From an uncultured virus (IMG/VR IMGVR_UViG_3300037153_000351) (lineage: Duplodnaviria; Heunggongvirae; Uroviricota; Caudoviricetes): a stretch of DNA of 64,000 bases. A model generated the notes under the pieces. That model did not search any database. It was not told where the DNA came from and was given only the letters and a program-made list of their open reading frames with translations. Where the stretch lies: IMG/VR virus record IMGVR_UViG_3300037153_000351; one strand, written 5' to 3'. The first letter of the stretch is position 1. Each line of letters starts with the position of its first letter. This document shows, piece by piece, positions 3,047 through 52,109 of this stretch. The translations under genes were made by a program, and so were the position numbers.

Positions 3047-3356
3047 GGCGAGGTGCCAAGCGAGCCGGCCCGTACCAACCTGTGAGCGGGGGCAATCCGA
3101 ATTCGTTGCGGCGTTTGCGGTCGGCCCAAGCGAGCAATTTTTTATAGCTCTTGAACCGTCCGATCTCGCACGACACGCGCGCGTGCTCGCCGAGGACATC
3201 GCGATTTTTCTCGACGAATTGGGTTTGCACGGCGTCGAGGCTGTAATTCTCGTCGATCTCGAACAGCCACACAATCCGACAGTGCTGCGCAAAATTCCAC
3301 TCGTGCGGCAATTCCGGGTCGTCGAATTTAATGAGCACAGCGGCGAGCATGATCAC
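3039..3356 (-). CDS. hypothetical protein
   Basis: 105-aa ORF with 4-nt start/stop overlap with the upstream gene. Confidence 0.6.
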   Translation of the reverse strand: MIMLAAVLIKFDDPELPHEWNFAQHCRIVWLFEIDENYSLDAVQTQFVEKNRDVLGEHARVSCEIGRFKSYKKLLAWADRKRRNEFGLPPLTGWYGPARLAPRRD

Positions 3357-3961
3357 ACGCGATATTTCTCGCGGAGCGTGGCCAAGAGGTCATCGCGATC
3401 AATCCTGTCGCGGCGTGTTTCACAATAACCGAAAACGCGATCTTGCCCCGCGATGATCGCGCGCGCGCAACAATGGATGGAATCGAGGCTTCGGATCCGG
3501 GCGAATTGGGCGCGATAGCCGTGCTCATGCTCGATCACGTCGCCCCACAATTTGACGGTGCCTCCTACCCGGAATGAATCAGTCCACCATGTCGCATAGT
3601 CCGCCATCCGCTCGAAATCCTTGAACGCGTGCACGCCGGCGGCGTCGACGTCGCCTTGCATAACTTCACCCGGCCGCCAACACGCGTCGACGGCCATGCT
3701 AAAGAGCGTTTCTCCATCTTCGCCGACGCGCCAGCACCGATGCGCGATGATTTCGCCGGCGATGATTCCCTCGTTCGGGACGGGCACGGCGTCGTCGTCG
3801 ACCCAATAGAGCGGCAGTCGCCAGATTGGGGGAATATTTTGAAACGAGATCGGCACGGCCATAGCCCGATTGATCGCCAAACGATATTGCGCCAACACCG
3901 AGAAGATCCGAAGTTGATTGACGAGATCAGGCGGGTACGTGTTCGGGGCCGGTAGGGACAT
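3353..3961 (-). CDS. protein with tail-sheath terminal-arm mimic fused to an uncharacterised phage domain
   Basis: aa 9-28 match the sheath C-terminus and aa 37-54 match the sheath N-terminus; C-domain carries GVHAF..GTVKLWGDVIEHEHGYRAQFARI. Confidence 0.8.
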   Translation of the reverse strand: MSLPAPNTYPPDLVNQLRIFSVLAQYRLAINRAMAVPISFQNIPPIWRLPLYWVDDDAVPVPNEGIIAGEIIAHRCWRVGEDGETLFSMAVDACWRPGEVMQGDVDAAGVHAFKDFERMADYATWWTDSFRVGGTVKLWGDVIEHEHGYRAQFARIRSLDSIHCCARAIIAGQDRVFGYCETRRDRIDRDDLLATLREKYRV

Positions 3962-4072
3962 GCGCGGGCTCTTTCGCCGGCGGCGCTTTCGGTGTTGGCT
4001 CGGGTGTCGGTTGGATTGGTTCGGTCAACGGCACGACTGTGATGCGCCGAATGGGTTTGCCTATGTCTGCCA

Positions 4073-4351
4073 TTATGCTCGCTCCCCCCGCAACTTGCCT
4101 GCCATCGCACGGGAGTCGGCGGCGATCGCATTGAGGTCGTCGGAGTTCACGGCGTCGTCCGCGCGATCCGCCATCCGGTCGAGGAAGGCGGCGGCTTCGG
4201 TGATCCGCTTGCCGTCCTCTAGCAGCTTGCCCTCATAGTGGAATAGTCTCTGCTGATCTCCAGCACGCTCGGCGCACAGCCGCTCGATCTCATCGGCGGC
4301 CTCCCATCCTCCACACGCCCCCTCGCGCAATCGCTTAACGATATCGCTCAT
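4073..4351 (-). CDS. small cassette protein (EAADEIERL module)
   Basis: Last cassette of the repeat array; MSDIVKRLRE...AADSRAMAGKLR. Confidence 0.75.
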   Translation of the reverse strand: MSDIVKRLREGACGGWEAADEIERLCAERAGDQQRLFHYEGKLLEDGKRITEAAAFLDRMADRADDAVNSDDLNAIAADSRAMAGKLRGERA

Positions 4352-4352
4352 G

Positions 4353-4613
4353 CTACTTCCCCTCCAGGGCGCGGCGGGCCGTCATAGCTGCACTGGTGAG
4401 CCATTTATCTCCAAGCGCATCCTCCCAAGTATCGTTCACCATCTCTCTTAGCGCCGCCGTCAGCCGCTCGTTTTCAATCGACAGGGCGCAGCGCGAGGCC
4501 GTCAGCCGCTCGATCTCGGCGCGCAGTCTTTCCTCAAGTCCGCAATTGCATGGCCCGACTGGAAGGGCGGGTGCGTTGTAGATCGCACAGTCGGAATGGT
4601 GCACGTCGCTCAT
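4353..4613 (-). CDS. small cassette protein
   Basis: MSDVHHSDCAIYN..PCNCG..LRAEIERL..ALEGK. Confidence 0.75.
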   Translation of the reverse strand: MSDVHHSDCAIYNAPALPVGPCNCGLEERLRAEIERLTASRCALSIENERLTAALREMVNDTWEDALGDKWLTSAAMTARRALEGK

Positions 4614-4614
4614 G

Positions 4615-4716
4615 CTACTTCCCCTCCAGGGCGCTCCAGCCGGGACCACTGCTACCCGGCCTCGCAGGGCGTCGGGGGCGATTGCGCATTCGCCACACCG
4701 CAGGAGTGTTGCTCAT
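4615..4716 (-). CDS. 33-aa cassette peptide (not in ORF track)
   Basis: In-frame MSNTPAVWRMRNRPRRPARPGSSGPGWSALEGK* between two repeats. Confidence 0.5.
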   Translation of the reverse strand: MSNTPAVWRMRNRPRRPARPGSSGPGWSALEGK

Positions 4717-5006
4717 TCCTTCCCCTCCAGGGCGCGCAGCTTCGCCGCCATCGCGCGGCAATCAGAAGCGATAATCTTAAACCCTATGCCGTGGTAATCA
4801 TTAGACGCTTCAAGGTCGTCTGCCAGCCCGTCGAGGAAGGCGGCGGCCTCGGCGATCTGCTCATGCAGATCATCAATGGACTTCTCATAGGACGCATTGC
4901 GTTCCTGTGAACGCTGCACGTCCTTGTCAGCCCGCAGCCGCTCGTTCTCGGCGCGCAGCCGTGCAAGCTCATGGTCCACGCTGGTCATCTCAGAATTAGG
5001 TCTCAT
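4713..5006 (-). CDS. small cassette coiled-coil protein
   Basis: LRAENERL, EAAAFLDGLA, DCRAMAAKLRALEGKE. Confidence 0.75.
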   Translation of the reverse strand: MRPNSEMTSVDHELARLRAENERLRADKDVQRSQERNASYEKSIDDLHEQIAEAAAFLDGLADDLEASNDYHGIGFKIIASDCRAMAAKLRALEGKE

Positions 5007-5088
5007 AGTTTTCCCTCCAGGGCGCTAAGTTTACGCGGTTGCGATGCTCAGCGGGCTCAAAAGCTTCGGAACGGTGCACGTCGCTCAT
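4996..5088 (-). pseudogene. truncated/frameshifted cassette (MSDVHRSE...)
   Basis: Start resembles MSDVHHSD of 4353-4613, but it enters the next repeat out of the ALEGK frame (APWRENYET*). Confidence 0.45.
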
Positions 5089-5089
5089 G

Positions 5090-5395
5090 CTACTTCCCCT
5101 CCAGGGAACGGCGGGACACCCATTTGTCGGCGTCCCTATGCCACGACTGTTGCGGTATAAACTCTCCGGCCATCCAAGCGCGCGCCGCAAGAATGAGCGT
5201 ATTGGCCAGGGCGAGCTCCGCCCTCAATTCGTTGTTGATGCGCATGATCTCCTGCATACCCCGCTCGACCGCCGATGGCTGCCGCAGCGCGATCTGCTCG
5301 ATGAATTGATCTCGTTCTTGAGTCAGCCGCTCGATCTCGGCGCGCAGTTCTGCGTTCTCGTCGCAAAGCCTGCGCCATTCCGGTGCTAGGTTCAT
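5090..5395 (-). CDS. small cassette coiled-coil protein
   Basis: MNLAPEW..LRAEIERL..RRSLEGK. Confidence 0.72.
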   Translation of the reverse strand: MNLAPEWRRLCDENAELRAEIERLTQERDQFIEQIALRQPSAVERGMQEIMRINNELRAELALANTLILAARAWMAGEFIPQQSWHRDADKWVSRRSLEGK

Positions 5396-5396
5396 G

Positions 5397-5588
5397 CTAC
5401 TTCCCCTCCAGGGCGCGGCGGGCACAGTCCGTCATGGACCGAATAATATCCCGCAACCCGTGTTCGTATTCCCCTGTCAGGTTGCACTTGTCGAAATCCG
5501 CGATAATTGTCATCTGCGCCCGCAGCCGCTTGATCTCGGCGACGAGCTTGTCGATGGTGTCCATTGCGCGTTCGGTGATATCGCTCAT
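5397..5588 (-). CDS. small cassette protein
   Basis: MSDITER..AEIKRLRA..ARRALEGK. Confidence 0.72.
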   Translation of the reverse strand: MSDITERAMDTIDKLVAEIKRLRAQMTIIADFDKCNLTGEYEHGLRDIIRSMTDCARRALEGK

Positions 5589-5589
5589 G

Positions 5590-5850
5590 CTACTTCCCCT
5601 CCAGGGCGCGGAGCTTCGCTGCCATCGCGCGGCAGTCGGCGGCGGCTTGTGGCAGGCTTTTGGCGAGTGGATTATCTAGGCGCTTCGCCAGCCCGTCGAG
5701 GAAGGCGGCGGCTTCGGTGCGTATATGCAATAGGTCGGCGATCAGCGAGGCGTCATGCGCCGCATATTCGCGCTGTTGCCGGAGTTCGGCACGCAACCGT
5801 TCGAGCCCGTCATGGTCGGCTTTTTCGCGATAGAACCGATCTGCGCTCAT
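5590..5850 (-). CDS. small cassette protein
   Basis: MSADRFY..EAAAFLDGLA..AADCRAMAAKLRALEGK; ATGA overlap with upstream gene. Confidence 0.72.
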   Translation of the reverse strand: MSADRFYREKADHDGLERLRAELRQQREYAAHDASLIADLLHIRTEAAAFLDGLAKRLDNPLAKSLPQAAADCRAMAAKLRALEGK

Positions 5851-7939: not shown

Positions 7940-9211
7940 TTAGGCCGCTTTGCCGAACGCCGGCGCGGCGAGCTTGCCGCTCACGAGGCCGGTGACGAAC
8001 TCCGCCCATAGCTCGAATCCCCGCCGTTGTGCGGCAAGCTTTTGTCCGGGCAGATAGGTTTTCTGCACGACGGTGTGGGGCTCGTGGCCGATCATCTGTT
8101 CGGCGACCCGAAAGTCGACGTCGAGGTCGTCAAGGCCGCTGCGCATGGTGCGGCGCAGGTCGTGCAGGCGGAATTCCGCCACCTTGCCGAACACCGCCTC
8201 GTCGAGCTTGGCCTTGGCCTTGCTCCAATTCGAGAATCCAAGATCCTCGGCCCCAAACACGAACCGGCGGCCCTGCGGACGTTCGCCGATGATTTCGAGC
8301 GCGGCCGGCGGGAGCGGGATCTGGCGGGCGTTGCCGGTTTTGGTACGCTCCGCGGGCAGGTTCCAAACGCCGTCGGCAATCTCCGCCCATTCCATGCCGC
8401 CGATTTCTTCGCGGCGGTTGCCCAAGAGGATAGCGAGCCGAACAATCCGGCCGTAATCGCCAAGCACCTCGGCGGCCTGCCATACGAATTTGAGCTCGGC
8501 GTGGGACAAGGCCCGCTCGCGCGGCTTGCGGTCCTTTCTGCCCAACGGATCCTCGGTCACGCTGGCGGGGTTGGCCTCGACCCATTCGCGCGAGCGGGCG
8601 AAATCGAACAGCATGCACGCCGCCTCACGCGCTTGATGCGCCGCGCTGCGGGAGGGTTTCGCCGCCGTGGTGACCGTGTTGCCGGCCTTGTTCTCGCGCG
8701 CGTGTGCCACGCCGACGTCACAAATCAGGTCGAGCCGTTCGGCAATATCGCCAACCGAGATCCGGCGCAGGTCGACGCCGTGCAGGGGGGCAAAGTACGA
8801 GCCCTGTAAATAGCGCGGATATCCCCGCGCGGTGTTGGGGCGAACGTCCTCGGAGCGCCGTGCAATGAACTCCTCGGCCGCCTGCGCCCATGTGCGCCGC
8901 TTGACCGCCTTCGGGGCCTCGGCCGGCTTGCGCTCGGCGAGCGGATCCTTGCCCTCGCGGATGGCCTTGCGCACGGCATAGGATTCCAACTCTGCATCGG
9001 CCACAGGAAGGCCCGCAACCGGGCCGAGGCGCACGGGCACGCGCTTATCGCCGACGAGCGGGCGCACATACCAGATTTTGGAAACGACGCCGTCCTCGCC
9101 CTTCCTAAGCCGAATGGCGAGGTCGTGTTGGCCGTAGATCCACTCGTCGGCCTTGGCCGTGGTGAGGGCGGCGACAATTGCCTGATCAAATTCAATTCGC
9201 GGGGCGCGCAT
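7940..9211 (-). CDS. int: tyrosine integrase with N-terminal arm-binding domain
   Basis: Catalytic set GNRREE, RTKTG, HDLRRT, MIGH, QKTY; P4-type N-terminus (LAIRL..WY..RLGPVAGLPVADA). Confidence 0.93.
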   Translation of the reverse strand: MRAPRIEFDQAIVAALTTAKADEWIYGQHDLAIRLRKGEDGVVSKIWYVRPLVGDKRVPVRLGPVAGLPVADAELESYAVRKAIREGKDPLAERKPAEAPKAVKRRTWAQAAEEFIARRSEDVRPNTARGYPRYLQGSYFAPLHGVDLRRISVGDIAERLDLICDVGVAHARENKAGNTVTTAAKPSRSAAHQAREAACMLFDFARSREWVEANPASVTEDPLGRKDRKPRERALSHAELKFVWQAAEVLGDYGRIVRLAILLGNRREEIGGMEWAEIADGVWNLPAERTKTGNARQIPLPPAALEIIGERPQGRRFVFGAEDLGFSNWSKAKAKLDEAVFGKVAEFRLHDLRRTMRSGLDDLDVDFRVAEQMIGHEPHTVVQKTYLPGQKLAAQRRGFELWAEFVTGLVSGKLAAPAFGKAA

Positions 9212-17244: not shown

Positions 17245-17566
17245 GTGGGGGCCTCCGCATAGGTGTCGGCCGCGCCGCCGCGCGCCGGCCGGGTGATTTC
17301 GCGAGAGTCGAATCTGTGACGTATCTCGCATTGCACCGTCAACCGTCGGCGGTTCCTTTGCCTGTGGGCAAGTTTTAGAAAAGGGGGGTTGAGGGAACCC
17401 GGAATCCGTCCCATTATGGCCACAGCGCCCCGCTAAGGGGGGAATGCGGCCACGGCGGCCCGCATCCGGTACGGCAAAGCCCCATGAACGAGATCGAGGT
17501 ACGCAATCTCGCGGCTTTAATCGTGCTGGCGATTGGCCTGTGCCTGTGGTGCGTGGGCGTCATCCC

Positions 17567-18520
17567 ATGAAAATCGAGCGCCGGCCGATCATTAACATTG
17601 AGGAATGGTTGGCGTGGCGGCGGACCGACGTCCTCACGGCAAGCCGCGTCGCCGGCCTGTTCGGCCTGCACCCGCGCGAGACTCCCTATTCGCTGTTCCA
17701 GCGCGCCCATGGCGTCATTCTCCCGGAGGACGAGGGCGACGTCACCTCGCGGCAACGCGGCCTCGATTTCGAGGATCTGATCGGCCGCCGGTTCCAGCGC
17801 GAGCACCCGGAATTGAAGCTCAAGCGCGCCGGCGTCTATCTGCGCGACCCTGTGCGCAAGTTCGGCGGGACGCCGGATTTCTTCCTGCGCTCGCCCGCGC
17901 ATCAAAGGGGCGTGCTCGAATGCAAGAGCGTCGCCCCCTTCGTGTTCAAAAAATATTGGACGGAATACGAGCCGCCGCGATGGATCATCATGCAAACGCT
18001 CGTGCAAATGATGCTCGCACAGGCGACGTTCGGATGGATCGCGGCCTGCATCGTCGACGGATACCGATACGACCTGCATTGCTATGAGGTGCCGCGCCAC
18101 GCCGGCGCGGAGCGCCGGATCCTAGATGCTATCGAGTCATTCTGGCATTGCGTCGAGAACAACAAGGTGCCGGAACCGGACTATGCACGCGACGGAGCTT
18201 TGATTGCGGCCATGAACCAGAGCACGACGGAAGGAAAGACGGTCGACCTGCGCCACGACAACCGCCTGCCCGAAATCCTCGACGAGCGCGCGCGCCTCAA
18301 GCAAGAAATCGACGACGCCAAGGCGCGTTGCGAGGAAATCGAGAACGAAATTCGCGGCAAGATCGGCGACGCCGAGGCCGCGCTCGTCACAGGCTGGCGA
18401 TTGACCTGTAAGGAAATCAAGGAATCCGTCGTCAAGGAATACACGCGCAAGGCTTATCGCCAATTACGCGCCACGCGCGACGAGGCCCCCGCGCCCGCCA
18501 CTAGCGAGGTCGTCACATGA
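17567..18520 (+). CDS. YqaJ-family (lambda Exo-like) exonuclease
   Basis: EWLAWRR..TAS..G..TP, GLDFE, GTPDF..LECKS, QTLVQM. Confidence 0.88.
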   Translation: MKIERRPIINIEEWLAWRRTDVLTASRVAGLFGLHPRETPYSLFQRAHGVILPEDEGDVTSRQRGLDFEDLIGRRFQREHPELKLKRAGVYLRDPVRKFGGTPDFFLRSPAHQRGVLECKSVAPFVFKKYWTEYEPPRWIIMQTLVQMMLAQATFGWIAACIVDGYRYDLHCYEVPRHAGAERRILDAIESFWHCVENNKVPEPDYARDGALIAAMNQSTTEGKTVDLRHDNRLPEILDERARLKQEIDDAKARCEEIENEIRGKIGDAEAALVTGWRLTCKEIKESVVKEYTRKAYRQLRATRDEAPAPATSEVVT

Positions 18521-19613: not shown

Positions 19614-20213
19614 ATGGCACGACCTAGAAAGAAACGCGGCCCCGGACGGCCCCCGGGAAGCAAGAATAAGCGCGGGCCCGGACGTCCCAAAGGCAGCAAG
19701 AACAAGCCGAAATCTGTCGCGGTCGCCGGATATGGCAACGTGCCCGCGGTGCTCAACAATATGCGGGCCCGTTTGGGCGAGCTCGAAAGGCGGTTCGTGC
19801 ATATGGCCAGCATCGGCGAGGCGGAAGATCTTGCCGAGGTCGTGCGCTCGACAGTCGAGCAAATAACCGAAATGCACAAGCGGGTCGAAAAGCTCACGAC
19901 CGCTTTCAACGATCTCGTGACCGACGTCGAACATCCGAGCACGCAAATCCTCGCGCGTCGGCTTATTGCTGTTGAGCAAGCCGACAAGATGACTCGCACC
20001 GCGCACGACCGTTTGAACATGCTCGAACAGCATGTGCGCCAGATGCGAACCGAGGTCGCCGAGCTCGTCAACGATCGCATCACGGAACGCAACCGCGCCG
20101 AGGTCGAGCGCATCGCGCGCGGTGAGGAAGAATCGGAAATGCTCTACGGCAAGCGCCCGTCGGAGATTGAACAGGAACAGGACGAGGACCATGGCGACAA
20201 ACGCGAGCACTAA
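19614..20213 (+). CDS. AT-hook-like / coiled-coil protein
   Basis: MARPRKKRGPGRPPGSKNKRGPGRPKGSKNK; GGAGG SD. Confidence 0.7.
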   Translation: MARPRKKRGPGRPPGSKNKRGPGRPKGSKNKPKSVAVAGYGNVPAVLNNMRARLGELERRFVHMASIGEAEDLAEVVRSTVEQITEMHKRVEKLTTAFNDLVTDVEHPSTQILARRLIAVEQADKMTRTAHDRLNMLEQHVRQMRTEVAELVNDRITERNRAEVERIARGEEESEMLYGKRPSEIEQEQDEDHGDKREH

Positions 20214-21318
20214 CAGCGGCGGCGGGCCGCTCCAAATCATCCGGCACGACCTCGAACGCATGACCTCGCAATTCGCCATGGTCATGCCGGCGGACACGGT
20301 CGACCGCTTCAAGCGAATATTCGTCACCATGCTACAGGAAAACCCGAACCTGTTGTCGTGCACGCCCGGGTCGCTCATTCGCTGCGCCATGCGCGCCGCG
20401 CAAGACGGGCTCGAACTCGATGGCCGCGAGGCCGCGTGCGTGCCATTCAAATCCGGCGGCGAAACCATCGCACAATATGTGCCGATGATTTTGGGGATCC
20501 GAAAAAAGGTTCGGCAGTCGGGCCTCGTCTCCGATTGGAATGTGCAGGTCGTTTACGAGGGCGACGAGTTCGAGGTCGCGCTCGGCGATCGGCCGTATAT
20601 CCTGCACAAGCCATCGCTTAAAGGCGGGCGCAAACGCCCCATCATCGGGGCCTATAGCATCGCCACCTTTTCCGACGGCACGGTGTCGCGCGAGTTCATG
20701 AACGCGGACGAGATCGAGGACATCCGCGCCAAGTCGAAATCCCGTCAAGGGCCGTGGGCGGATCCTGTCTATTATCCGGAGATGGCGCGCAAGACGGTCG
20801 CCCGCCTGCACGCCAAGCAACTCCCCATGTCGTCGGATCTCGCCGCGGTGTTCACGCGCGAGGATCAGGAAACCGGCGCGGTTCCGCCGCCGGCCGCGCC
20901 CGCGCCGACCCGCCTGCGCATCGGCAACGTGTCGCACGCGCTCGACGATTTCGCTTCCTCGCCGTCCCTTTCGGCCCCTCCGCAAGAGGCGGCGGCGGAA
21001 GGTCGGGCCCGGGATGACGAGCCGTCGCAATCGTTCCCCGACAGCGGCGGGGCGTCCCCCGGGCCCGGTGCCGATTGGAGCGACGACGTCGCCCCCGTTC
21101 CCGACGACGACCCGGCCGAGCTCGCCGCCGGCCACGAGGCCGCCGACGAGGCATTCGACGCCCGCCGCGTTGCCTATGAACTCGGGAAAAAGGCCAAGGC
21201 CGCTAACCCCACGGCCCTGCCAAACAGGATCATTCCGGGCGAGTACCGTTCCGGCGAACGCACCCGCGAGGCCCTTGCGTGGCGGGCCGGGTTCGATGGG
21301 CAGGACATGCCGGCGTGA
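20191..21318 (+). CDS. recT: RecT-family ssDNA annealing protein
   Basis: NPNLLSCTPGSLI..AAQDGLELD..VYEGDEF..IGAY..PW..EMARKTV..KQLPMS; near YqaJ. Confidence 0.88.
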   Translation: MATNASTNSGGGPLQIIRHDLERMTSQFAMVMPADTVDRFKRIFVTMLQENPNLLSCTPGSLIRCAMRAAQDGLELDGREAACVPFKSGGETIAQYVPMILGIRKKVRQSGLVSDWNVQVVYEGDEFEVALGDRPYILHKPSLKGGRKRPIIGAYSIATFSDGTVSREFMNADEIEDIRAKSKSRQGPWADPVYYPEMARKTVARLHAKQLPMSSDLAAVFTREDQETGAVPPPAAPAPTRLRIGNVSHALDDFASSPSLSAPPQEAAAEGRARDDEPSQSFPDSGGASPGPGADWSDDVAPVPDDDPAELAAGHEAADEAFDARRVAYELGKKAKAANPTALPNRIIPGEYRSGERTREALAWRAGFDGQDMPA

Positions 21319-39529: not shown

Positions 39530-40834
39530 TCACGTTGCCGGCGGACGCGGGCGCAGGAAGCGTTGTTCGAGTGGGATCCCGGCATTCGAGAGCACGCGCA
39601 ATCGGCGCGGCATGAATGCGGGGTGCACGACGCCGTTCTCGACCTCGATCTCGTCCGAGCGCCGCACGTCCTGATAAATGCGATGCGCGAGATAGAGCGA
39701 GGGCATCGGCCACGCCGTCTCGTAGGTGACGAGGCGCGGCAATTGCAACTCCGTCACCGATAGGTGATTGATCAGCGCGCCCGACATGGCGGTCATCGCC
39801 TGATAAACGACGACGTCAATCTCATCTATGCCGATGGCCTTGGCGTCGTCAAACGCTTTCGCCATGTAGATGATCAGGTTGCGGCATTGCTGTTGCGTCT
39901 TGAACTTCAATCGCGTGATGCATTTGGATTCGAGCGCGAGCGTCATGGTCAAGGCGGAGCGGAACACGATTTGCGTAAAGGTCGACTTGCTGGCGACTTG
40001 CGTCATGAGATAGAGGCGCGCCTTGTCGACGCCCGGGAAGGTCGCGCCGGCGGCATCGGCCGCCAACATGATCTCGGACAATTGCGTGCCGAGGGTGTCG
40101 CCACGAATGGCGGCGTCGGCGTTGGCCTTGAGCACGGAAATCAACCGCCGCACGGTGTTGCGCTCGGCCGTTGCCGGCAAGGGCGGGATCGAGCTCAAGA
40201 GTGTATCGAGGAACGTGCGCAGCATGGCCGCCGCCTCGCCCGTCGCCTTGGCATAAGTGAGCGGCCACTCGATCCCGACGAATTGCCACGTCAAGCGCGG
40301 ATAGCCGAACGAGGGCGAGCCGAGGGAATAGGCGTTAACGAGGATGACCGAGTTGACGAGGATCGGGCCGACCGTTCCCCACGAGAGAGCCCCGACGCTA
40401 TAGGCCGGCGCAACGAGTTGCCGATTGGCCAAGACTCGCGCCTGTCCCCACGCGAGGCCGCCGAGCGTATAGGCGTTGGTGAACAGTGTATGCGATTGCG
40501 TGAGAACCGGCGGCGTAGCAAAAGCGAGTGCGCCAAGCGAATAGGCCGGAACCGTGAGCCGTTGCGTCGCCCGTAGTGTCGGCGTGGCAAAGCTCGGCGA
40601 ACCGAGCGTCAGCGGAACCGGATTGAGCGCGAGGAACGCGGTGCCGAGGATCGGCGTCGCGAACGCCGGCGAGGCAAGCGAATAAGCGGCAACGCTTAAC
40701 TGATAATTGACCTTGAGTGTCGGCGTCGCGAACGCCGGCGCGCCGAGAGAATAGTCGAACGCAACGACATTGTTGCCCGCCTGAAAAGCGTTGGCCTGAA
40801 AACCCGGTGATTGGAATGCAGGAAAGCCGGACAT
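39530..40834 (-). CDS. beta-repeat protein fused to a Mu DNA-circulation C-terminal-like domain
   Basis: Repeated AYSLG.P.FATP units, then PSLYLAHRIYQDVRRSDEIEVENGVVHPAFMP. Confidence 0.7.
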   Translation of the reverse strand: MSGFPAFQSPGFQANAFQAGNNVVAFDYSLGAPAFATPTLKVNYQLSVAAYSLASPAFATPILGTAFLALNPVPLTLGSPSFATPTLRATQRLTVPAYSLGALAFATPPVLTQSHTLFTNAYTLGGLAWGQARVLANRQLVAPAYSVGALSWGTVGPILVNSVILVNAYSLGSPSFGYPRLTWQFVGIEWPLTYAKATGEAAAMLRTFLDTLLSSIPPLPATAERNTVRRLISVLKANADAAIRGDTLGTQLSEIMLAADAAGATFPGVDKARLYLMTQVASKSTFTQIVFRSALTMTLALESKCITRLKFKTQQQCRNLIIYMAKAFDDAKAIGIDEIDVVVYQAMTAMSGALINHLSVTELQLPRLVTYETAWPMPSLYLAHRIYQDVRRSDEIEVENGVVHPAFMPRRLRVLSNAGIPLEQRFLRPRPPAT

Positions 40835-41724
40835 TAACGCGCGCGCCTCGCGCGAATGCCGCCACAACACGCGCAATTGCCGTTAAACGAAACCCATTCC
40901 ACGCAATACCATGTTTGCGTCGAGGCGAGGCTCAAGCGCACGGGCCCCGCGCGCAACGTCAATTGCTGAGTCGCGATTGCGGTCAATTGCTGCCGCCCAA
41001 CAAACATCGTATTTGCGGTCATGCTGCCGCCGTTCGCAGCCACATCGGAAATGTACGTAAAGCAAATCGGGTTGAGCGTATTGCCGCTAAAATTGAAATT
41101 GACGACCGCACTCACATCCCAATCGCCGGCCGGAATGGCAAGCGAACGAATGGTCGCATATGCATTTGCGCTCACGAAAAATTCGCCAGCCGATGTTAAA
41201 TTCGCTTCGAGATATTCGCCGACATCACCCGCTGCCGCATTGTCGTTGGTCAGCGTGCCGGCGATTGTAGTTGTGCCATTGAAATCGTTTGTTCCGGAAA
41301 AGACATTCTTGCCGCCGCGCGTAACTGCAATGACAGCCTGATAGGCGGCGGTGCCGTTGCTAAATAGCTCGATATAGTCGCCGCCAACGAGAACAATCGT
41401 TGCGCTTCCGTTGAAGGTCGCGCCGCCTGTGCCGGTGATCGTGACGGTGCCGACTCCAGTATTTCGGATCCGCGTCATCCATCCGGCCGGCATGTTGCCG
41501 CCTGTGGGGGCCGCCATGGAAACTGCGACCGCGCCGGCATTGCTATAACTAATGAGCGAAAAATGGTCGTCGTTTGTAATCGTGTCCGTCGTTCCGGTGA
41601 CGGTCCGATAGCCGTACCAGAGATTATGGTCATCATTCCAATTCGTGAGCGGGCGCACGAGCGTCGCATCCGCACCGTCGGCAATGGCGGATTGGAATTT
41701 ATGCTTGAGGATTTTTGCCGTCAT
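40834..41724 (-). CDS. putative tail fibre/receptor-binding protein, paralog 2
   Basis: MTAKILKHKF..NWNDDH; NDNAAAGDVGEY; GDWDVSA; IRARRAR. Confidence 0.7.
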   Translation of the reverse strand: MTAKILKHKFQSAIADGADATLVRPLTNWNDDHNLWYGYRTVTGTTDTITNDDHFSLISYSNAGAVAVSMAAPTGGNMPAGWMTRIRNTGVGTVTITGTGGATFNGSATIVLVGGDYIELFSNGTAAYQAVIAVTRGGKNVFSGTNDFNGTTTIAGTLTNDNAAAGDVGEYLEANLTSAGEFFVSANAYATIRSLAIPAGDWDVSAVVNFNFSGNTLNPICFTYISDVAANGGSMTANTMFVGRQQLTAIATQQLTLRAGPVRLSLASTQTWYCVEWVSFNGNCACCGGIRARRAR

Positions 41725-41726
41725 CG

Positions 41727-42638
41727 CTAACGCCTCCGCCGTGCGGAAATGCTGCCCCACACATTCACGCCGATACCGAGTCCAAAATTGGCGAATACAG
41801 GCAACCAGAAATCTTTAGCCGTTGATAAGCTCACGCGCGCAGGCCCCACATCACATGAATGGGTGATACCGTTTGTCCAAGTAAAGGTCGTTTTTCTAGT
41901 CTGAAAGAAGTAATTTCCAAAATACGATCCACTATTTGCACTTGCATCGCTAATGATGGCGAACATTGTTAGGTATTCGCCCGACGTTACACTGGCCTCA
42001 AACCCTGCGACCGCGGATACATCCCAATCGCCCGGGGACAAGGTTATCGGCGTCGTGACATTCGAATATGCGGCATTCACCAAGCTAAACCGATTCGCGA
42101 ATAGCCGAACCGCTTCGACATATTGCCCGACATCGCCCGCGGCCGCCGCATCGTTCGTTGCGGTGCCTGCAAATGTGGTCGGGCCATTGAAATCGTTGGT
42201 GCCGGTGAATTGGTTATAACCGAGGCCGCGCGTTGCTGTAATGATTGCTGAATAATTGGCGGTCCCATTGCTAAAGAGATCCACAATGTCGTCGGTTAAG
42301 ACGGCGATGGTACCGACCCCGTTGATGGTCGCGCCGCCGCTTCCCTGCAAATAGACAATGCCCGCGCCGCCCGCAGCGTTGCGTAATCGCGTCGTCCATC
42401 CGGCGGGCATGTTGCTTCCGGACGGCGGCGAGATCGAGACGTTTGTCGTTCCCGCCGCGGTATAGGAAATCAGCGACAGATTGTCATCGTTGGTGATCGT
42501 GTCGCTTGTGCCCGCAACCGTGCGGATGCCATACCACAGATCATGCTCGTCATTCCAATTCGACGGCCTGACTTGTGTCGCGTCGGGGCCGTCGGCGACG
42601 GCCGACACGAACTTATGTTTGAGGATTTTTGCCGTCAC
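41727..42638 (-). CDS. putative tail fibre/receptor-binding protein, paralog 1
   Basis: MTAKILKHKF..NWNDEH; NDAAAAGDVGQY; GDWDVSA; ISARRRR. Confidence 0.7.
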   Translation of the reverse strand: MTAKILKHKFVSAVADGPDATQVRPSNWNDEHDLWYGIRTVAGTSDTITNDDNLSLISYTAAGTTNVSISPPSGSNMPAGWTTRLRNAAGGAGIVYLQGSGGATINGVGTIAVLTDDIVDLFSNGTANYSAIITATRGLGYNQFTGTNDFNGPTTFAGTATNDAAAAGDVGQYVEAVRLFANRFSLVNAAYSNVTTPITLSPGDWDVSAVAGFEASVTSGEYLTMFAIISDASANSGSYFGNYFFQTRKTTFTWTNGITHSCDVGPARVSLSTAKDFWLPVFANFGLGIGVNVWGSISARRRR

Positions 42639-45410: not shown

Positions 45411-46705
45411 TAGACGTTTGTCCCCTGATCGGAGGTGCCTTCGGCCTGCGGATAGTTGCCGCCGTTCATGGCGGCCGCGTTGACCAATTCGAGCGTCGAG
45501 CGCGTGCCGCTTTGATTGTCCTGTGAGAACGTCACCGCCTTGAGCATGAGCGGGCGTTGCATGATTAGCATGGGCGAGTCGACATAGACGAGCTCGCCCG
45601 GATCCCACAGGCCGCCGTTCGGCCGCTGCCATCCGACGCAAACCACGGTGACGAATATTTGGTTGGAGTCGTCGACGTTCTTCTCGATCCGAACACGGTT
45701 TTCGAGCATGGCTTTCGACCACGCCGGAATCTCTGACATCATGAGCTTGGGCAAAAACTGACTCGAAAACTGCGCCGGCGACCCGCCTTGCGAATAGGTG
45801 CCGTGGGTCGGCTTCGCGCCCCAATCGTCATCCTTGCCCGGGCGTTGTCCGCTCGACGTATAGGGTTGCCCGCCGCCGCTGCCGCCGCCGGCCTGCGGGA
45901 AATTGCCGCCGGCCGCGATCTGGCGATTGTGAATGACCTCGCGGCCGATCAGAATATTTTTGCCCTCGACCACGGCCGGCATTCCGGAGTCATTGATCAT
46001 GCCGCGAATGAGATATGAGCCGTCATTCGATTCGCCGGTGAGCGCGTTTTTCGCCCGCGCGTATTTCTCGACGAACTCCGCGACCGTCTCGCCCGGTTGC
46101 GAGTTCGCGCGCGGGATCTTCGAGCCGTCGATTGTCCCCAACGTTTTGAGCTTGATCCCATAGGGCGCGATCGCCGACTTGGCGATTTCCACGAGCGATT
46201 TATTGTTCCACTCACCGGTCGGCGAAATCACCGTGCCGCGGCCGAGCACGTCGGTATTGCCGACGGATTGGATCTCGACCGAGTGTTGGGTCGCGTCGTA
46301 GTAGACTTGCCGCGTCGCGACCTGCCCGGTGATCACGAGCATGCCGTCGAGATAGACCTCACACTTATCGCCCGGGCGGATGCGAAGGAACGCCCAATCC
46401 TGCGCCCACGGGGTTTGCTCCGAGCATGTGAGGCGACATTGCCGCGGCGGTTTACCGTACCATTCGATCCGCACGTACACCGATTCCCACTCGAAATACT
46501 CCTCGCCGTTGATCACCACGACCGCGCGCATGAGATAGGGCGGACGGAAGAATGCTTTCGTGCTGCGGTTCGTGCCGCCCTGCGGTGTGTCGCGGCCCTC
46601 GCCGCCGGTACTGTTGCCCTCCGATGCCTTGCCTTCCGGCGCAGCATCGGATCCGGGCGTATCGGTTTCGGGCGTAACGATGACTTCGGGAAGATCTTCG
46701 GCCAT
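45410..46705 (-). CDS. baseplate hub, Mu gpP/gp44-like
   Basis: INGEEYFEWESV..IRPGDKCEVYLDG..QPGETV..VGWQRPNGGLW..GTRSTLEL. Confidence 0.88.
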   Translation of the reverse strand: MAEDLPEVIVTPETDTPGSDAAPEGKASEGNSTGGEGRDTPQGGTNRSTKAFFRPPYLMRAVVVINGEEYFEWESVYVRIEWYGKPPRQCRLTCSEQTPWAQDWAFLRIRPGDKCEVYLDGMLVITGQVATRQVYYDATQHSVEIQSVGNTDVLGRGTVISPTGEWNNKSLVEIAKSAIAPYGIKLKTLGTIDGSKIPRANSQPGETVAEFVEKYARAKNALTGESNDGSYLIRGMINDSGMPAVVEGKNILIGREVIHNRQIAAGGNFPQAGGGSGGGQPYTSSGQRPGKDDDWGAKPTHGTYSQGGSPAQFSSQFLPKLMMSEIPAWSKAMLENRVRIEKNVDDSNQIFVTVVCVGWQRPNGGLWDPGELVYVDSPMLIMQRPLMLKAVTFSQDNQSGTRSTLELVNAAAMNGGNYPQAEGTSDQGTNV

Positions 46706-49557
46706 TAGGCTTGCGCGTAATTATTCCAATCGGACGTCCCCTCGCCGCCGTTCTCGCCCATCTGCGGGGTTTGTCGGAGCGAGGCGTCAATGAATTTCTT
46801 GTCCTTGGCGGCGTGCTTTTGCGACTTGCCCTTGACCTCGACATTGACCTTTGCGCCGCCGAGGTCGGAGCGTTTCTTGCGCTCCGGTGGCAAGGGGATA
46901 TCTTGGCTCGCGCGGTTGCTCGACCGCCCGGTCACCCTATCGCGCTCCGTTTGGTCGACCGGATTTCGCATGCCGCGGTCGAGCGCGTCGCGCAATGCTT
47001 TTGACCCGCGATAGATCCCCGGAGCGCCGCCACGGGACGGGCCCACGACGTCGAGGTGGATCCAGTTCGGGCCCATGTAACTCTGTTCCGCGCCGCCGCC
47101 CTTGACGCCTGCGCGGCCGGCGGCCTCGACGAAATCGAGCGCCCGCTTGTCCGTGTGCGGAACGACGTTGCCCTTTTCGTCGACGAGATCGAAATCAGCG
47201 GCGTCGCCGTAATCGTGCCGATGCGAGCCCGTGCGGTTCGGGCCGCTTCCCGGTTGCCCGCCGGATTTGACCCGCACCGTGAGGCCGGTCATCGCGGAGG
47301 CGTATTCAAGCGCGCCCCGCAGTGCCGCGCTAATCGGTTGCCTGCGCATCCGAGCCTCGCGAGCCTGATCCTCGATCACGCGGCCGGTGCCGCCACTCTG
47401 CCCGCCTTGATCCCCGGGCGTACGTTCGTTACCCGGGCCCCGCACCGCGCGTTGAATGTCTGAAATCTGCATTTGCCGCGGGCCGTCGCCTGTCGTTGGC
47501 CCGTGCAATGTTTTCAACTTCCCGCGCACGCCCGCCGGCCATTGTGCATTCGTCCGGTTCGGATCGTTGCTCGCCCCGGGCGGGGCCCAAACTCTTCCGA
47601 GCTTGTCTATATCGCCACCGGCCTCTTTATAACGCCGGCCCGCCGAGCGCGCGGCGTCGGAAATGCCTTCCTCCGGCGTAGCATAAGTGACATATCGGCC
47701 ATTCTTGAAAATGCCCGCAGGATTATATTTGGTGCGGGCCATCGGCGAGCGGCCATTGTTCGTCTCGAAAGCAATCATGCTCGCAAAAACCGACGGGGGA
47801 ATTCCGTTCTTCTGCGCCTCACGCACGATTGTGTCGTATTGGTTGGCAAACACACCTCCGGAGAACATTTTATTGAAGGCGTCGCGGCTCAAATCGTTGC
47901 CGCCTTCTTGTCCCGCCGGCGCATTCGAGTCGAGCCCGGGCTGTTGCGCCAACGATTCCGGCGCTTGCCCGGGCGAGGTCGGGATGTTGAACGACGAGGT
48001 GAGTTGATCGCCGCCCGCGCTCGTGCCCGTGCCGCCCCCGCCGCCCGCGCCGCCGCCACCTCCCCCACCTCCGCCGCCTCCTCCTCCTCCGCCGCCGCCG
48101 CCACCTCCATAGCCCCCGCCTCCGCCGCCAAATCCCCCTCCGCCGCCCGGTGAAAAGCTCGCGAGTTGGAACCCGGGAGGCCGGCCGCCAGTCGCCGCGG
48201 GGGCCTCGGTTTGATTTCGGATCCACGCCAGAATGTCACGGATCTCGACGAGGGTGACATTGCCCTCTTGTTCCTTAATGCTGATCTCGCGCAACAGGCC
48301 CGGGCCGCCGCCGACCGACCCGGTAAAGCTCATTCGCTTCGCGCCTTGCTCGAATTGCTGTTTGAGTTGATATTCGCCTTCCTCACGTTGCAGCCTCCTA
48401 AGCTCGTCCTCCCATGCCTTGCGCTGCGCGTCCGATGGTTTGCCCCCGCTTGGTGACGTCCCCCTGCCGCCGAGCAATTGGTCGAGATCTTTCATTCGGC
48501 CTTGTCGCTTTTTGGAATCTTCCTCCGCTCCGCCCGTGCCCGGTATGAGCCGGATAATTTTCAACATCACCTCAAGCACGGTGTTGAGCTTGGGCAACAC
48601 GAATTCGAGAACGTTATCCTTGACCCGATTCCACAGGTTCGAGGCCGCGGTCGTGAGCTTGATATAATTCTGATTCAATCGCTCTTGCTGTTCGGAGAGT
48701 TGTCTCGCCTGTTCCTCGGTTCGCCGATAAACTTCGGGCAACGTGCGCCGCGCCCGATCCCATTGCATTAGAATTTCCGGCGGGATCCCCAACGCCTGCG
48801 CGACGTAGCGTTGCACCTTCGGCGAGAATTTCGAGATCTCCCCGACTAACCAGTCCTGCACCTCGACCATGCCCTTGCCTTGCTCGTGGAAAAGCTCACG
48901 GGCGCGGGTCGCGAGGCGCGTGGCATTCGGCCCGAACTTTTCGAGCGCCTGATACATTTCCGAGGACACGCCGCGATAGGAATCGAAAATCAATCGCGAC
49001 ATTTGCCCCATGATTTGCTCGGCTTGCTGCCGATTGGTGCCGATGGATTCGAGCACCATGCGCGAGCGACGAATTTGCGATTCGTCGGTTTCGAGCAATC
49101 GGATCTTGAGGCTTTCCAATTCTCGATTGGTGCGCACGAGCGCGGCGGTGAGGCCAACCGCGGCCGTAGCGGTGCCGCCAAGGACCGTGGCAAATGCACT
49201 AAACGCGCGGCTCGCGGTGCCAACCGACGAGGCCATTTGGCCGGCGGCCGCCGCGGTTTGATTGAGCCCGCGGGTAAGCTCGCCCGACGCCGCGCCCATG
49301 GTTTGCAGGGAACGGGTTGTCCCGGTCAACCATTCGGAGATCGAGCGCGACCAACGCGTGACGGATTCGGTAACGCCGGCATATTCCGCGCGTACGCCAC
49401 CGGATTCGCGGCGGATCTGCCGAAACCCGGTCGCGGTTTCGGAAACAATGGCGTCGACCTTCTGCCGCAACGCCTCGAATTCACCCGTGATTTGCTTTAA
49501 TCCGGGTGATAGCTCGTCGGTGAGTGTTGCGGTTAGACTCGCGCGTTCGTCGGCCAC
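46705..49557 (-). CDS. tape-measure-like protein B with lysozyme/glucosaminidase-like and M15-like peptidase domains
   Basis: Helical N-half, poly-Gly linker, AFETNNG..YNPAGI..YATPEEGI, SHRHDYGDAADF..WIHLD. Confidence 0.75.
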   Translation of the reverse strand: MADERASLTATLTDELSPGLKQITGEFEALRQKVDAIVSETATGFRQIRRESGGVRAEYAGVTESVTRWSRSISEWLTGTTRSLQTMGAASGELTRGLNQTAAAAGQMASSVGTASRAFSAFATVLGGTATAAVGLTAALVRTNRELESLKIRLLETDESQIRRSRMVLESIGTNRQQAEQIMGQMSRLIFDSYRGVSSEMYQALEKFGPNATRLATRARELFHEQGKGMVEVQDWLVGEISKFSPKVQRYVAQALGIPPEILMQWDRARRTLPEVYRRTEEQARQLSEQQERLNQNYIKLTTAASNLWNRVKDNVLEFVLPKLNTVLEVMLKIIRLIPGTGGAEEDSKKRQGRMKDLDQLLGGRGTSPSGGKPSDAQRKAWEDELRRLQREEGEYQLKQQFEQGAKRMSFTGSVGGGPGLLREISIKEQEGNVTLVEIRDILAWIRNQTEAPAATGGRPPGFQLASFSPGGGGGFGGGGGGYGGGGGGGGGGGGGGGGGGGGAGGGGGTGTSAGGDQLTSSFNIPTSPGQAPESLAQQPGLDSNAPAGQEGGNDLSRDAFNKMFSGGVFANQYDTIVREAQKNGIPPSVFASMIAFETNNGRSPMARTKYNPAGIFKNGRYVTYATPEEGISDAARSAGRRYKEAGGDIDKLGRVWAPPGASNDPNRTNAQWPAGVRGKLKTLHGPTTGDGPRQMQISDIQRAVRGPGNERTPGDQGGQSGGTGRVIEDQAREARMRRQPISAALRGALEYASAMTGLTVRVKSGGQPGSGPNRTGSHRHDYGDAADFDLVDEKGNVVPHTDKRALDFVEAAGRAGVKGGGAEQSYMGPNWIHLDVVGPSRGGAPGIYRGSKALRDALDRGMRNPVDQTERDRVTGRSSNRASQDIPLPPERKKRSDLGGAKVNVEVKGKSQKHAAKDKKFIDASLRQTPQMGENGGEGTSDWNNYAQA

Positions 49558-52109
49558 TAGGCGACATTCCTCATTTCATCGTCGTCATCGTCCATCATAT
49601 TTTCCTGCCGGAACGACAGGCCGTCCTCGAACGCCCCATCGGCGGAGGCTTGCGCTTTCACCATGCCAATCGGCGCGCGGATATTGATGGCGATGCGCGC
49701 GTGCGGCGAGGGATCGGCGGCTGGCGATATGAGATCGGAATCAAATTCCCGATCTTGCGTGGCGCGTTGCACATCAATTGTACGATGCGGCCCGCCCGCC
49801 ACCTCGACGCCGCCGAGCGGTTGCATATCCGGGCCTTGCGGTTGATATCCGCGCCCCCTTGACGGTGCAATGATCGGCGACAATTGCGGGAGCGTCGGCG
49901 CTTCCCACGGCGGCATTTTTTGTTCTGCCCCAACATCACTCGGACGGCCAAGATCCTCGCGGTCGCCTCCCGTCGACGTATCTTGTGTGGCAGCCGCCAT
50001 TTGCATGTCGCCGCCGACGCCCGCCCGCACAGTTTCCGGCGGAGCTTGCGGGGCCGGTTGCTGTGGGCCCGCCGGCGCTTGTTGCTGCGGTGCCGCCGGC
50101 GCTTGCTGCGGGGCCGGTTGCTGCCCGCCGCTCTCCGATTTCTTGGGGCTCGTGCGCGCGGGTTGTCCGCCGCGCGGGAGATTCTTGGGATCGTAACCGT
50201 GCTCTTTTCGCGGGCTTATGATCTGACTGCCGCGTTGTCCGGGTTGGCCGCGCCAGCGTTCATAGTGCAAATGCGGGACGCCGTTCGCCGTGCCGCTCGT
50301 GCCGATCTTCGTTCCGCCGGTGACCTTGTCGCCGACTTTGAAATAGCGATCCCGCATATGCAGCATACGGGTAAAGGTGCCGTCGGCATGCTGGATCGTC
50401 ATCGTCGGTTGCCCGAAATTATCGGTGCCGGTTTTGACGACCGTGCCATCCTTCGGCGCAAATACGGGCGACCCGATCGGGGCCATGATATCGTCGCCTT
50501 GATGGCGACCCGCGCCCATGCTCGCGCTCGTGCCGCCGACGCCGCCGCCTAACGAGGTGCCCGTGATCGGGTCATAGAGCGCGCCCTCGCCCCCGGGCCC
50601 CGTGATCGGGTTGCTATCATTGCCGCCTTGCGGCGTCGAGGAGTCGCCGCCCCCGCCTCCTCCTCCTCCTCCGCCGCCGCCGCCACCTCCATAGCCCCCG
50701 CCTCCGCCGCCTCCGCCCCATCCGCCGGTGCCGCCGCCGCCGCCGAAACCGGCGAGCATGACCTGTGCCCCGCCCGCGCCGCCTTGCTGATTTCGGATCC
50801 AATCAAGAATGTCGCGGATCTCGACGAGAGTCTTATTGCCTTCGCTTTCCTTGGTCGAGATCTCACGGAGCGATATCGGTTGCGCGCCCGTGCCCGCGCC
50901 CGCCCCCGGGTCGTAGCTCATGCGCCGGCGGAGCTCGTCCCGCCCCTGTTCGCGCAAGAGCTTTTCGAGGAATTGCGGATTCGGCGCAACGTTGCGCTTC
51001 GTCCATTCGTCCGGGTTCTCGATAATGCGCCGTTGCCGCTCGATTTCCTCGCGCCGCATTTCCGGCGTCCAATATTTCGAATCCAATTGCCGCAAAACAT
51101 TTTCCAGAACGAAATTGATTGCCGGATAAAGGTACTCGAAAAACGCGTCACGGATGCGGCGGAACAGATTGTCAAACGCGGTGCCGATGTTCGTCGTCAA
51201 TTGCTGCATCCGCAAAGCTTCTTTTTCGAGCCGCGCCTCGCGATCTGCGGTTCGCGCGTAAATGTCGGGCAATTGCGCGCGCGCCCTTTCGTGCTGCATC
51301 ATGATTTCGGGCGCGAGGCCAAGCGATTGCCACATGAAGCGTTGCACGTTCGGGGCCTGCCGCGAGATCTCGCGCGCGAGAGTTTCGATGCCGCCGACCG
51401 TACCCTTGCCTTGCTCGTGCACGGCCTTGCGCACGCGTTCGGCGATCTGAATTCCGCCGATCCCGAACTTTTCCAACGCTTGAAACAGATCCGATTGCGT
51501 GCCGCGCATCGAGTCGAATATCAGATCCGACATGCGCTCCATCATGCTGCGCGCTTGCTTTTCGTTCATGCCGAGATTTTCGAGCACCATCTGTTCGCGG
51601 CGCAGATTGGCGCTCGTCTCGTTTCCCATGCGCATGCGGAAATTGCGTTGCTCTTGCTCGGCCTCCGCGTAATAGCGGCCAAGTCGATAGAACGCATATC
51701 CGACCGCTGCGATGGCAGCGGGCACCGCGATAATTCCGGCCGTGATCGCGCCGGCGGTGCCGAGCGCACCGACGCCTGCCATGGCGCGGGTGATCCCGGT
51801 CGTGGCGAGCGAGCGGAATGCGACGTTGAGCGGGCCAAGCGCGCGAGAAACGCCGACGACGGATTCGACCGCAACGCGGGTCGCGGTTTGCATGCCGACC
51901 TTGACGAGGTCGACGCTTGCCTGTGCCCGTTTGGTTTCAACCTGCCACTTTTCAATGTCGCGCAGGATAACGCGCAGATTTGCCGTCTGCGCGTTGCTCG
52001 CTTGATGCATGCGCGAGCGGTAGTTGTCGAACTCGCGGGTGATATCCCGGAGCGAGGCCGACAGGTCATCAGTGAGGCCGATGGTTATATTTATTTTTTC
52101 GTCGGCCAT
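49557..52109 (-). CDS. tape-measure-like protein A with M23 peptidase domain
   Basis: Helical N-half, poly-Gly linker, HQGDDI..GSPVFAPKDGTV..HM..PHLHYE. Confidence 0.8.
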   Translation of the reverse strand: MADEKINITIGLTDDLSASLRDITREFDNYRSRMHQASNAQTANLRVILRDIEKWQVETKRAQASVDLVKVGMQTATRVAVESVVGVSRALGPLNVAFRSLATTGITRAMAGVGALGTAGAITAGIIAVPAAIAAVGYAFYRLGRYYAEAEQEQRNFRMRMGNETSANLRREQMVLENLGMNEKQARSMMERMSDLIFDSMRGTQSDLFQALEKFGIGGIQIAERVRKAVHEQGKGTVGGIETLAREISRQAPNVQRFMWQSLGLAPEIMMQHERARAQLPDIYARTADREARLEKEALRMQQLTTNIGTAFDNLFRRIRDAFFEYLYPAINFVLENVLRQLDSKYWTPEMRREEIERQRRIIENPDEWTKRNVAPNPQFLEKLLREQGRDELRRRMSYDPGAGAGTGAQPISLREISTKESEGNKTLVEIRDILDWIRNQQGGAGGAQVMLAGFGGGGGTGGWGGGGGGGGYGGGGGGGGGGGGGGGDSSTPQGGNDSNPITGPGGEGALYDPITGTSLGGGVGGTSASMGAGRHQGDDIMAPIGSPVFAPKDGTVVKTGTDNFGQPTMTIQHADGTFTRMLHMRDRYFKVGDKVTGGTKIGTSGTANGVPHLHYERWRGQPGQRGSQIISPRKEHGYDPKNLPRGGQPARTSPKKSESGGQQPAPQQAPAAPQQQAPAGPQQPAPQAPPETVRAGVGGDMQMAAATQDTSTGGDREDLGRPSDVGAEQKMPPWEAPTLPQLSPIIAPSRGRGYQPQGPDMQPLGGVEVAGGPHRTIDVQRATQDREFDSDLISPAADPSPHARIAINIRAPIGMVKAQASADGAFEDGLSFRQENMMDDDDDEMRNVA

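Follow-up and report, generated by a model that had tools for sequence, protein, structure and literature searches.

Paralogous mini-genes joined by short coding DNA blocks in a soil phage: a probable site of gene and half-gene shuffling

The array and its setting

The stretch of DNA analysed here (the window, 64,000 nucleotides) makes up the opening 64 kb of the virus record IMGVR_UViG_3300037153_000351 (73,907 nt), from soil metagenome runs, and it carries the gene set of a temperate tailed phage, including a tyrosine integrase, a Cro-like gene, YqaJ, RecT, sheath and capsid. A weak GapR-like match (E 0.0014, below the cut-off) suggests an alphaproteobacterial host. Between positions 4073 and 5850, eight small open reading frames (ORFs) of 86, 63, 101, 30, 97, 33, 86 and 92 amino acids follow one another on the minus strand, joined by seven copies of a short repeat, the junction. 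The genes are paralogues, which have in common the junction and three internal DNA blocks, with variable segments in between:

Gene 1, 5590..5850, minus strand: 86 aa; EAAAFLD and DCRAMA blocks; C-terminus ALEGK*
Gene 2, 5397..5588, minus strand: 63 aa; EIKRL block; C-terminus ALEGK*
Gene 3, 5090..5395, minus strand: 101 aa; EIERL block; C-terminus SLEGK*
Gene 4, 4996..5088, minus strand: 30 aa; start like that of gene 7 (34 nt exact, including the junction); the next junction is read out of frame
Gene 5, 4713..5006, minus strand: 97 aa; ENERL, EAAAFLD and DCRAMA blocks; C-terminus ALEGKE*
Gene 6, 4615..4716, minus strand: 33 aa; in frame with ALEGK*
Gene 7, 4353..4613, minus strand: 86 aa; Cys/His N-terminal module; two EIERL-type blocks; C-terminus ALEGK*
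Gene 8, 4073..4351, minus strand: 92 aa; MSDIV start; EIERL, EAAAFLD and DSRAMA blocks

Judging from its reading frame and its start, gene 4 is likely a deletion relic, and gene 6, whose exact sequence is absent from the protein collection searched, is possibly another relic. None of the array genes gave a match above the cut-off in PHROGs, Pfam, NCBIfam or PADLOC, and the single match of the array in Rfam is due to chance. The structure model of gene 5 (pLDDT 91, 11 sequences) is a helical hairpin with helices at residues 5-68 and 74-95, for which Foldseek returned no match among viral models at E<=0.001. From their size, the proximity of the integrase and an analogy with the Ea22 proteins of lambdoid phages, the products may be accessory coiled-coil proteins that interact with the host, and their variable segments could be the parts that meet host or rival-phage targets. 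The N-terminal Cys/His module of gene 7 (H-x-SDCAIYNAP-x-GPCNCG), possibly a small metal-binding module, is also found in the unrelated proteins P0009-P0011, and a 2,229-nt contig carries a variant of gene 7 with the C-terminus ALEGE.

The junction repeat

A 15-nt core of the junction occurs seven times on the minus strand (4356-4370, 4618-4632, 4719-4733, 5009-5023, 5093-5107, 5400-5414 and 5593-5607), against 0.12 +/- 0.41 expected by chance, and none of 100 shuffles reached seven. Outside the array, the core is absent from the 73,907-nt genome with up to 3 mismatches. The recount bears out an earlier sequence-only reading of this DNA, which had reported seven copies and eight ORFs of 30-101 aa. 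The copies extend as follows:

Junction copy 1, 5583..5611, minus strand: C-terminus, Shine-Dalgarno sequence (SD), stop and next ATG
Junction copy 2, 5390..5423, minus strand: 32 nt identical to copy 7
Junction copy 3, 5083..5107, minus strand
Junction copy 4, 5003..5025, minus strand: degenerate; out of frame for gene 4
Junction copy 5, 4713..4736, minus strand: overlapping ATGA stop/start
Junction copy 6, 4608..4634, minus strand
Junction copy 7, 4340..4379, minus strand: 35 nt identical to copy 1

The length of 25-29 bp given earlier for the repeat describes five of the seven copies, those with the full ALEGK-TAG-C-ATG form and 22-35 nt exactly shared; it fails for the copy at 4733, which shares 18 nt and has its stop and start overlapping as ATGA, and for the degenerate copy at 5023. 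That the repeat provides the ALEGK end of one gene, an SD and the ATG of the next is upheld by a GGAGG lying 7-9 nt ahead of each ATG, and the 33-aa ORF indeed ends in frame with ALEGK while the 30-aa ORF runs through its repeat copy in another frame.

No hairpin or dyad is present in any of the seven copies (z-scores of -0.07 to +1.82 against shuffles), one of which folds weakly on both strands. Predicted promoters and terminators in the array are at chance level (2 against 2.0 and 9 against 8.3, respectively), with none at the junctions. The Leu codon of the junction is CTG in 7/7 window copies, as compared with 17% of the Leu codons in ten other genes. Across 25 loci, 39 of 45 distinct junctions close an ORF of at least 30 codons in frame, and selection on the protein and the SD alone could therefore maintain much of the junction; the other six comprise one at a contig edge, two that close 14-codon ORFs and three that are out of frame.

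Repeated blocks within the genes

The sequence-only reading had overlooked three further repeated DNA blocks, which lie within the array genes:

EIERL block, 5322..5348, minus strand: 27 nt identical to 4501-4527; more copies near 4266-4291, 4933-4959 and 5521-5547
EAAAFLD block, 5687..5719, minus strand: 25-26 nt identical to 4178-4202 and 4822-4847
DCRAMAAKLR block, 5609..5644, minus strand: copies at 4735-4770 and 4089-4124

As many as 17 of the 21 exact direct repeats of at least 18 nt in the whole genome fall in the 1.8-kb array, the internal blocks of 25-27 nt among them, and 14 of these 17 are 22-35 nt long. The codons of AEIERL, a motif that never served as a DNA search pattern, are fixed: in 22 distinct contexts, drawn from 29 loci, GCC is used in 22/22, CGG in 22/22 and CTG in 21/22. 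By their fixed codons, the junction and the internal blocks are conserved as DNA, beyond the protein level; fixed codons would also be expected from common ancestry of the segments.

Relatives of the array

The window's own array is stable between two assemblies, and the variation described below is known from sister arrays and other family members. A separate 47-kb IMG/VR contig of the same phage has the array region at 99.98-100% identity with the gene order unchanged, the proteins of the array genes are each present on 3-5 contigs, and in run X1, possibly the source sample, every inter-repeat segment is unique and has coverage free of differences. In run X4 (depth 5), one contig links gene 7 to gene 3 via a 32-nt identical block; since contigs built from 31-mers yield such joins when side branches drop out, this link was not counted, and as the 32 letters fit both sides, a circle, a reordering or an assembly join would look alike. 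Run X6, in which only part of the stretch is present at low depth, was left out.

Arrays of this kind extend well beyond one phage. The window's own junction joins genes in L048 (exact over 32 nt), L047, L054, L043 and L063, and a sister junction, ALEPKP* followed by ATG and first found in L004, occurs in 26 viral stretches, many with chains of two to six similar mini-genes. A third variant, LRGET*, is seen in L048, L167 and L169. The whole 2.2 kb of L048, L167 3558-4766 and L169 298-803 hold up to five consecutive genes that end in (D/E)CRxMAxKLRGET* and have overlapping ATGA joints. A metagenome scan gave 28 matches, seven of them array-type (L034, L036, L043, L047, L048, L051 and L054) and one, L050, a single family-like gene, with the remainder treated as chance. 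A profile of 11 EAAAFLD-type proteins reached at least 146 clusters among 8,000 scored candidates; the 120 listed clusters have one to three members each, and carry the motifs FLD (104), D/ECR (111) and EIERL (63). None of PHROGs, Pfam, NCBIfam and PADLOC names this mini-gene family, and the full-text literature searched, in which subscription journals are mostly uncovered, describes neither the family nor a coding stop-SD-start linker combined with intragenic blocks.

Among 50,697 records of cultured phages, the array found only five short Mycobacterium phage matches and a sister array none. The 22 matches of the junction pattern in GTDB genomes are all single, and neither another junction nor an EIERL block lies close to any of them (0/22); therefore no host could be named. 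Exact matches of 22-35 nt to the array occur in 6 of 160 locus records, a count enriched because these records were reached by array queries; they always lie at the blocks, as compared with 0/160 for flanks of equal length. When 17 window proteins were compared with three of the block-sharing phages, either the lysin alone (42-46%) or nothing was shared. As these phages are otherwise unrelated to the window, the exact blocks cross phage lineages.

Evidence for shuffling of genes and half-genes

Gain or loss of whole genes is seen in three pairs, all of which belong to the ALE(P/Q)KP sister variant and thus to arrays other than the window's own. As compared with L015, L051 has an additional gene of 239 bp between flanks of 98.1% and 96.6% identity, and L025 has one of 167 bp relative to L020 (flanks of 89% and 80%); L030 has an additional 440 bp relative to L011 (flank of 99.85%), by way of a repeat of 123 bp of which the junction is part. 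In all three pairs the breaks lie in the junction. The sister arrays thus support the earlier claim that recombination at the junction adds or deletes whole genes. The junction is not the sole crossover site, because half-genes switch at the internal blocks. L015 and L036 differ by a half-gene swap, being divergent between an RLRAAL block and the C-terminus, and L016 and L024 have only 147 bp in common (98%), beginning at EIERL.

Segments of window genes 1, 3, 5 and 8 also occur with new partners, the switch points lying at internal blocks. The segment of gene 1 from FLD to DCR reappears in P0024 behind a different N-terminus, and that of gene 8 from EIERL to FLD in P0028 with other ends. P0002 is a chimera in which the N-terminus of gene 3 (first 60 aa, 56/68 identical) is fused to the middle of gene 5, and the N-terminus of gene 5 is found in P0003. 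Of 38 alignment ends in the array zones of 28 loci, 15 lie within a block in each of the two partners, as compared with 12.6% of positions (p 3e-5, nominal since the ends are non-independent and the loci were selected by junction patterns); the other 23 lie outside the blocks. Given the sister-array indels and the conservation of the repeat as DNA, the two patterns that the sequence-only reading had named as contrary to its view, an invariant gene content and order across relatives and a repeat conserved only as protein, hold for neither this family nor its repeat.

A proposed mechanism and its rivals

The array can be viewed as a row of paralogous mini-genes composed from four short DNA blocks, at which homologous recombination, likely via a phage annealase, would add, remove and swap genes and half-genes; we consider this reading probable, if well short of secure. 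A crossover at the junction block would result in gain, loss or swap of a whole gene, and one at the internal blocks in a swap of half-genes. As the blocks are coding and in register, such crossovers should yield in-frame chimeras or whole-gene indels, with the junction providing SD, stop and start to the recombinants. By coupling translation, the junction would also allow a gene that lands between two junctions to be expressed in frame. Co-infecting or resident phages are the presumed partners in the exchange. Two genes of the window phage, which the sequence-only reading had correctly listed, could supply the enzymes:

YqaJ/RecE-like exonuclease, 17444..18520, plus strand: candidate partner of the annealase, with a putative role at the array
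RecT single-strand annealing protein, 20032..21318, plus strand: candidate driver in the window phage, with a putative role at the array

The lengths of the array blocks fit the minimal pairing segment of 23-27 bp given for Red-beta (31-34 bp for RecA) in a source where RecT and Erf are both said to perform better than RecA on short homology (PMC3945230). RecT, put forward earlier as a possible driver, is present here and is not specific to the system: ERF is found in 3/5 relatives tested (3/4 complete), RecT in 1/10 relative records (0/4 complete), and Sak4-like or Rad52-like proteins in 0/5 relatives. The complete relative G005, with one out-of-frame junction, has no match to RecT, ERF, Sak4-like or Rad52-like proteins. 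With RecT in the window and ERF in 3/4 complete relatives, any annealase would likely do; the driver may be RecT here and ERF in others, and host RecA is also conceivable.

The reading that comes closest to this mechanism is passive birth-and-death, in which the genes arise by tandem duplication, the blocks are kept by selection on motifs and ribosome-binding sites, and recombination is an occasional by-product. It would accommodate the 39/45 junctions in frame, the two relic-like genes among eight, the array of the window phage that is unchanged between assemblies and the conserved predicted helical hairpin that the motifs build. However, it does not sit well with the fixation of rare codons at synonymous positions, both beyond the SD and within the internal blocks, with 22-35 nt kept exact across unrelated phages while the segments between blocks are unrelated, or with the persistence of out-of-frame junctions (at least three in relatives and one in the window). 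We regard it as unlikely while granting it real weight, and its difference from the shuffling mechanism is mainly one of degree. An artefact of assembling short repeats, to which we attach a practically negligible chance, might be feared as 31-mer contigs break at repeats; yet the unique inter-repeat segments all covered without differences in run X1 (possibly the source sample), the same order in the separate 47-kb assembly and the presence of the proteins on 3-5 contigs each speak against it.

Two further explanations assign the junction a role of its own. Were it an att site on which a site-specific recombinase acts as in integrons, the tyrosine integrase (7940-9211), 2.1 kb upstream of the array on the same strand, would be at hand, and the clean whole-gene indels would follow. 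Against this stand the lack of a hairpin or dyad in 7/7 copies, the integrase itself, which is of phage type with an arm-binding domain and no IntI match, the use of four unrelated blocks as breakpoints, the difference of the junction among phages (ALEGK, ALEPKP, LRGET) and the one indel that runs through 123 bp of homology, so that we hold this explanation to be very improbable. The earlier description of the system as integrase-free is correct as to IntI and overlooks this phage-type enzyme. Alternatively, the junction could be chiefly a translation-control site copied before each gene for coordinated expression, akin to the start-associated sequences (SAS) of mycobacteriophages (PMC3203893), with which it shares a non-palindromic sequence, a single orientation and an internal SD 7-9 nt ahead of the ATG. 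But the copies lie within 1.3 kb and not across a genome arm, and the internal blocks and breakpoints are left unexplained; this explanation, too, strikes us as improbable.

Comparison with known systems

Integron cassettes hold one small gene apiece, all pointing the same way, with a repeat between neighbours; their attC site folds into an imperfect single-strand hairpin, and their integrase is IntI. The array resembles them as a row of same-orientation small genes parted by a repeat; in contrast, it has no attC hairpin and no IntI, its repeat is coding, and crossovers are also found inside genes.

By analogy, the best reading is that the array works like the PeSL (promoter-early stem-loop) cassettes of the T4-type phages RB49 and phi1 and like linker-mediated modular shuffling, as a variant with coding linkers. 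In the account of PeSL, short repeats between small unknown genes offer homology for insertion, deletion and replacement by which the genes stay expressible, as in the array, and in both a dedicated recombinase is not identified (Arbiol et al., 2010; PMC2839356). The PeSL element, according to that source, is an intergenic promoter with a terminator hairpin and its excised mini-circles have been demonstrated, whereas the array element is coding and translational, without a hairpin, and the one join that could reflect a circle is that of run X4, also readable as a reordering or an assembly join. The array lacks the sigma70-like promoter and terminator stem-loop of a PeSL and, unlike PeSL, has three additional blocks inside genes; that genes come and go with breakpoints inside the element is seen in the three sister-array cases.

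The Botstein-Campbell linker model (PMC2839356) and the relaxed recombination by Rad52-like proteins such as Red-beta, RecT and Erf (PMC3945230) share with the array the exchange of modules via short conserved flanks, by phage annealases there and probably also here. In the array, on the other hand, the modules are single mini-genes and pieces of 15-40 residues from a single family of paralogues, and each gene contains several linkers. The 'boundary sequences' of HK620 are reportedly grouped with the linker model. As linker shuffling implies, the homologies at the module borders of the array reach the pairing minimum of annealases, and the phage encodes an annealase.

The SAS of Cluster K mycobacteriophages is, like the junction, an asymmetric SD repeat just ahead of the ATG that at times overlaps the upstream stop; the sections consulted describe 13 bp spread across the non-structural half of the genome, with a proposed translational role, no shared C-terminus and, within those sections, no role in shuffling (PMC3203893). 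The junction, in contrast, has a different sequence and seven copies within 1.3 kb. The products may be likened to Ea22/Ead of lambdoid phages (PF13935), accessory proteins of coiled-coil type that are encoded close to the integrase and have flanking regions open to exchange (PMC8614690). The array proteins are far shorter and arranged in arrays; against the PF13935 Pfam model they gave no match at E<=0.01, and the feature-score lead of 0.81 is below the useful bar.

Significance

Shuffling at 22-35-nt coding blocks would provide a concrete case of how phage orphan genes originate, by assembly from parts and beyond slow divergence, and would account for the at least 146 nearly all-singleton clusters unnamed in catalogues. 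It also predicts exactly which deletions and chimeras are to be expected. If it is host targets that the variable segments bind, this would be a reservoir of candidate proteins for anti-defence or host control. A bolder and rather doubtful extension is a selected, recombinase-free generator of diversity common to soil phages, in which a small helical scaffold with three variable slots, constant coding blocks as universal crossover handles across unrelated phages and a self-coupling junction together sustain a community-wide combinatorial library of mini-protein binders, for instance against host defences.

Neighbouring features

The array does not lie directly upstream of the gene described earlier as a sheath mimic, as a proline-rich 48-aa ORF (3927-4073, minus strand; MADIGKPIRR...) intervenes and overlaps the start of that 202-aa gene (3353-3961, minus strand). 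Residues 9-29 of the 202-aa product are similar to the C-terminal end of the tail sheath that the phage itself encodes (53906-55693, minus strand), and the similarity extends to the DNA, with synonymous differences. L065 has the same pair of 48-aa and 202-aa ORFs, overlapping in two frames (4879-5034), and because its homologue is without the sheath-like segment, this looks like a captured fragment and not a conserved mimic. In the search with the 202-aa gene, 78 of 80 loci matched only the short sheath-like motif and were excluded.

Elsewhere on the minus strand, 46705-49557 and 49557-52109 are two genes in tandem, of tape-measure-like or tail-tip type, whose products contain long runs of glycine and which have a 53-nt exact repeat in common, and 40834-41760 and 41727-42638 are tandem paralogous tail-fibre-like genes with near-identical N-termini. 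In the non-coding region 2500-2850, short GCGGCACC/GGTGCCGC repeats are clustered and a 12-bp hairpin lies at 2818-2846; this may be an origin or a set of operators.
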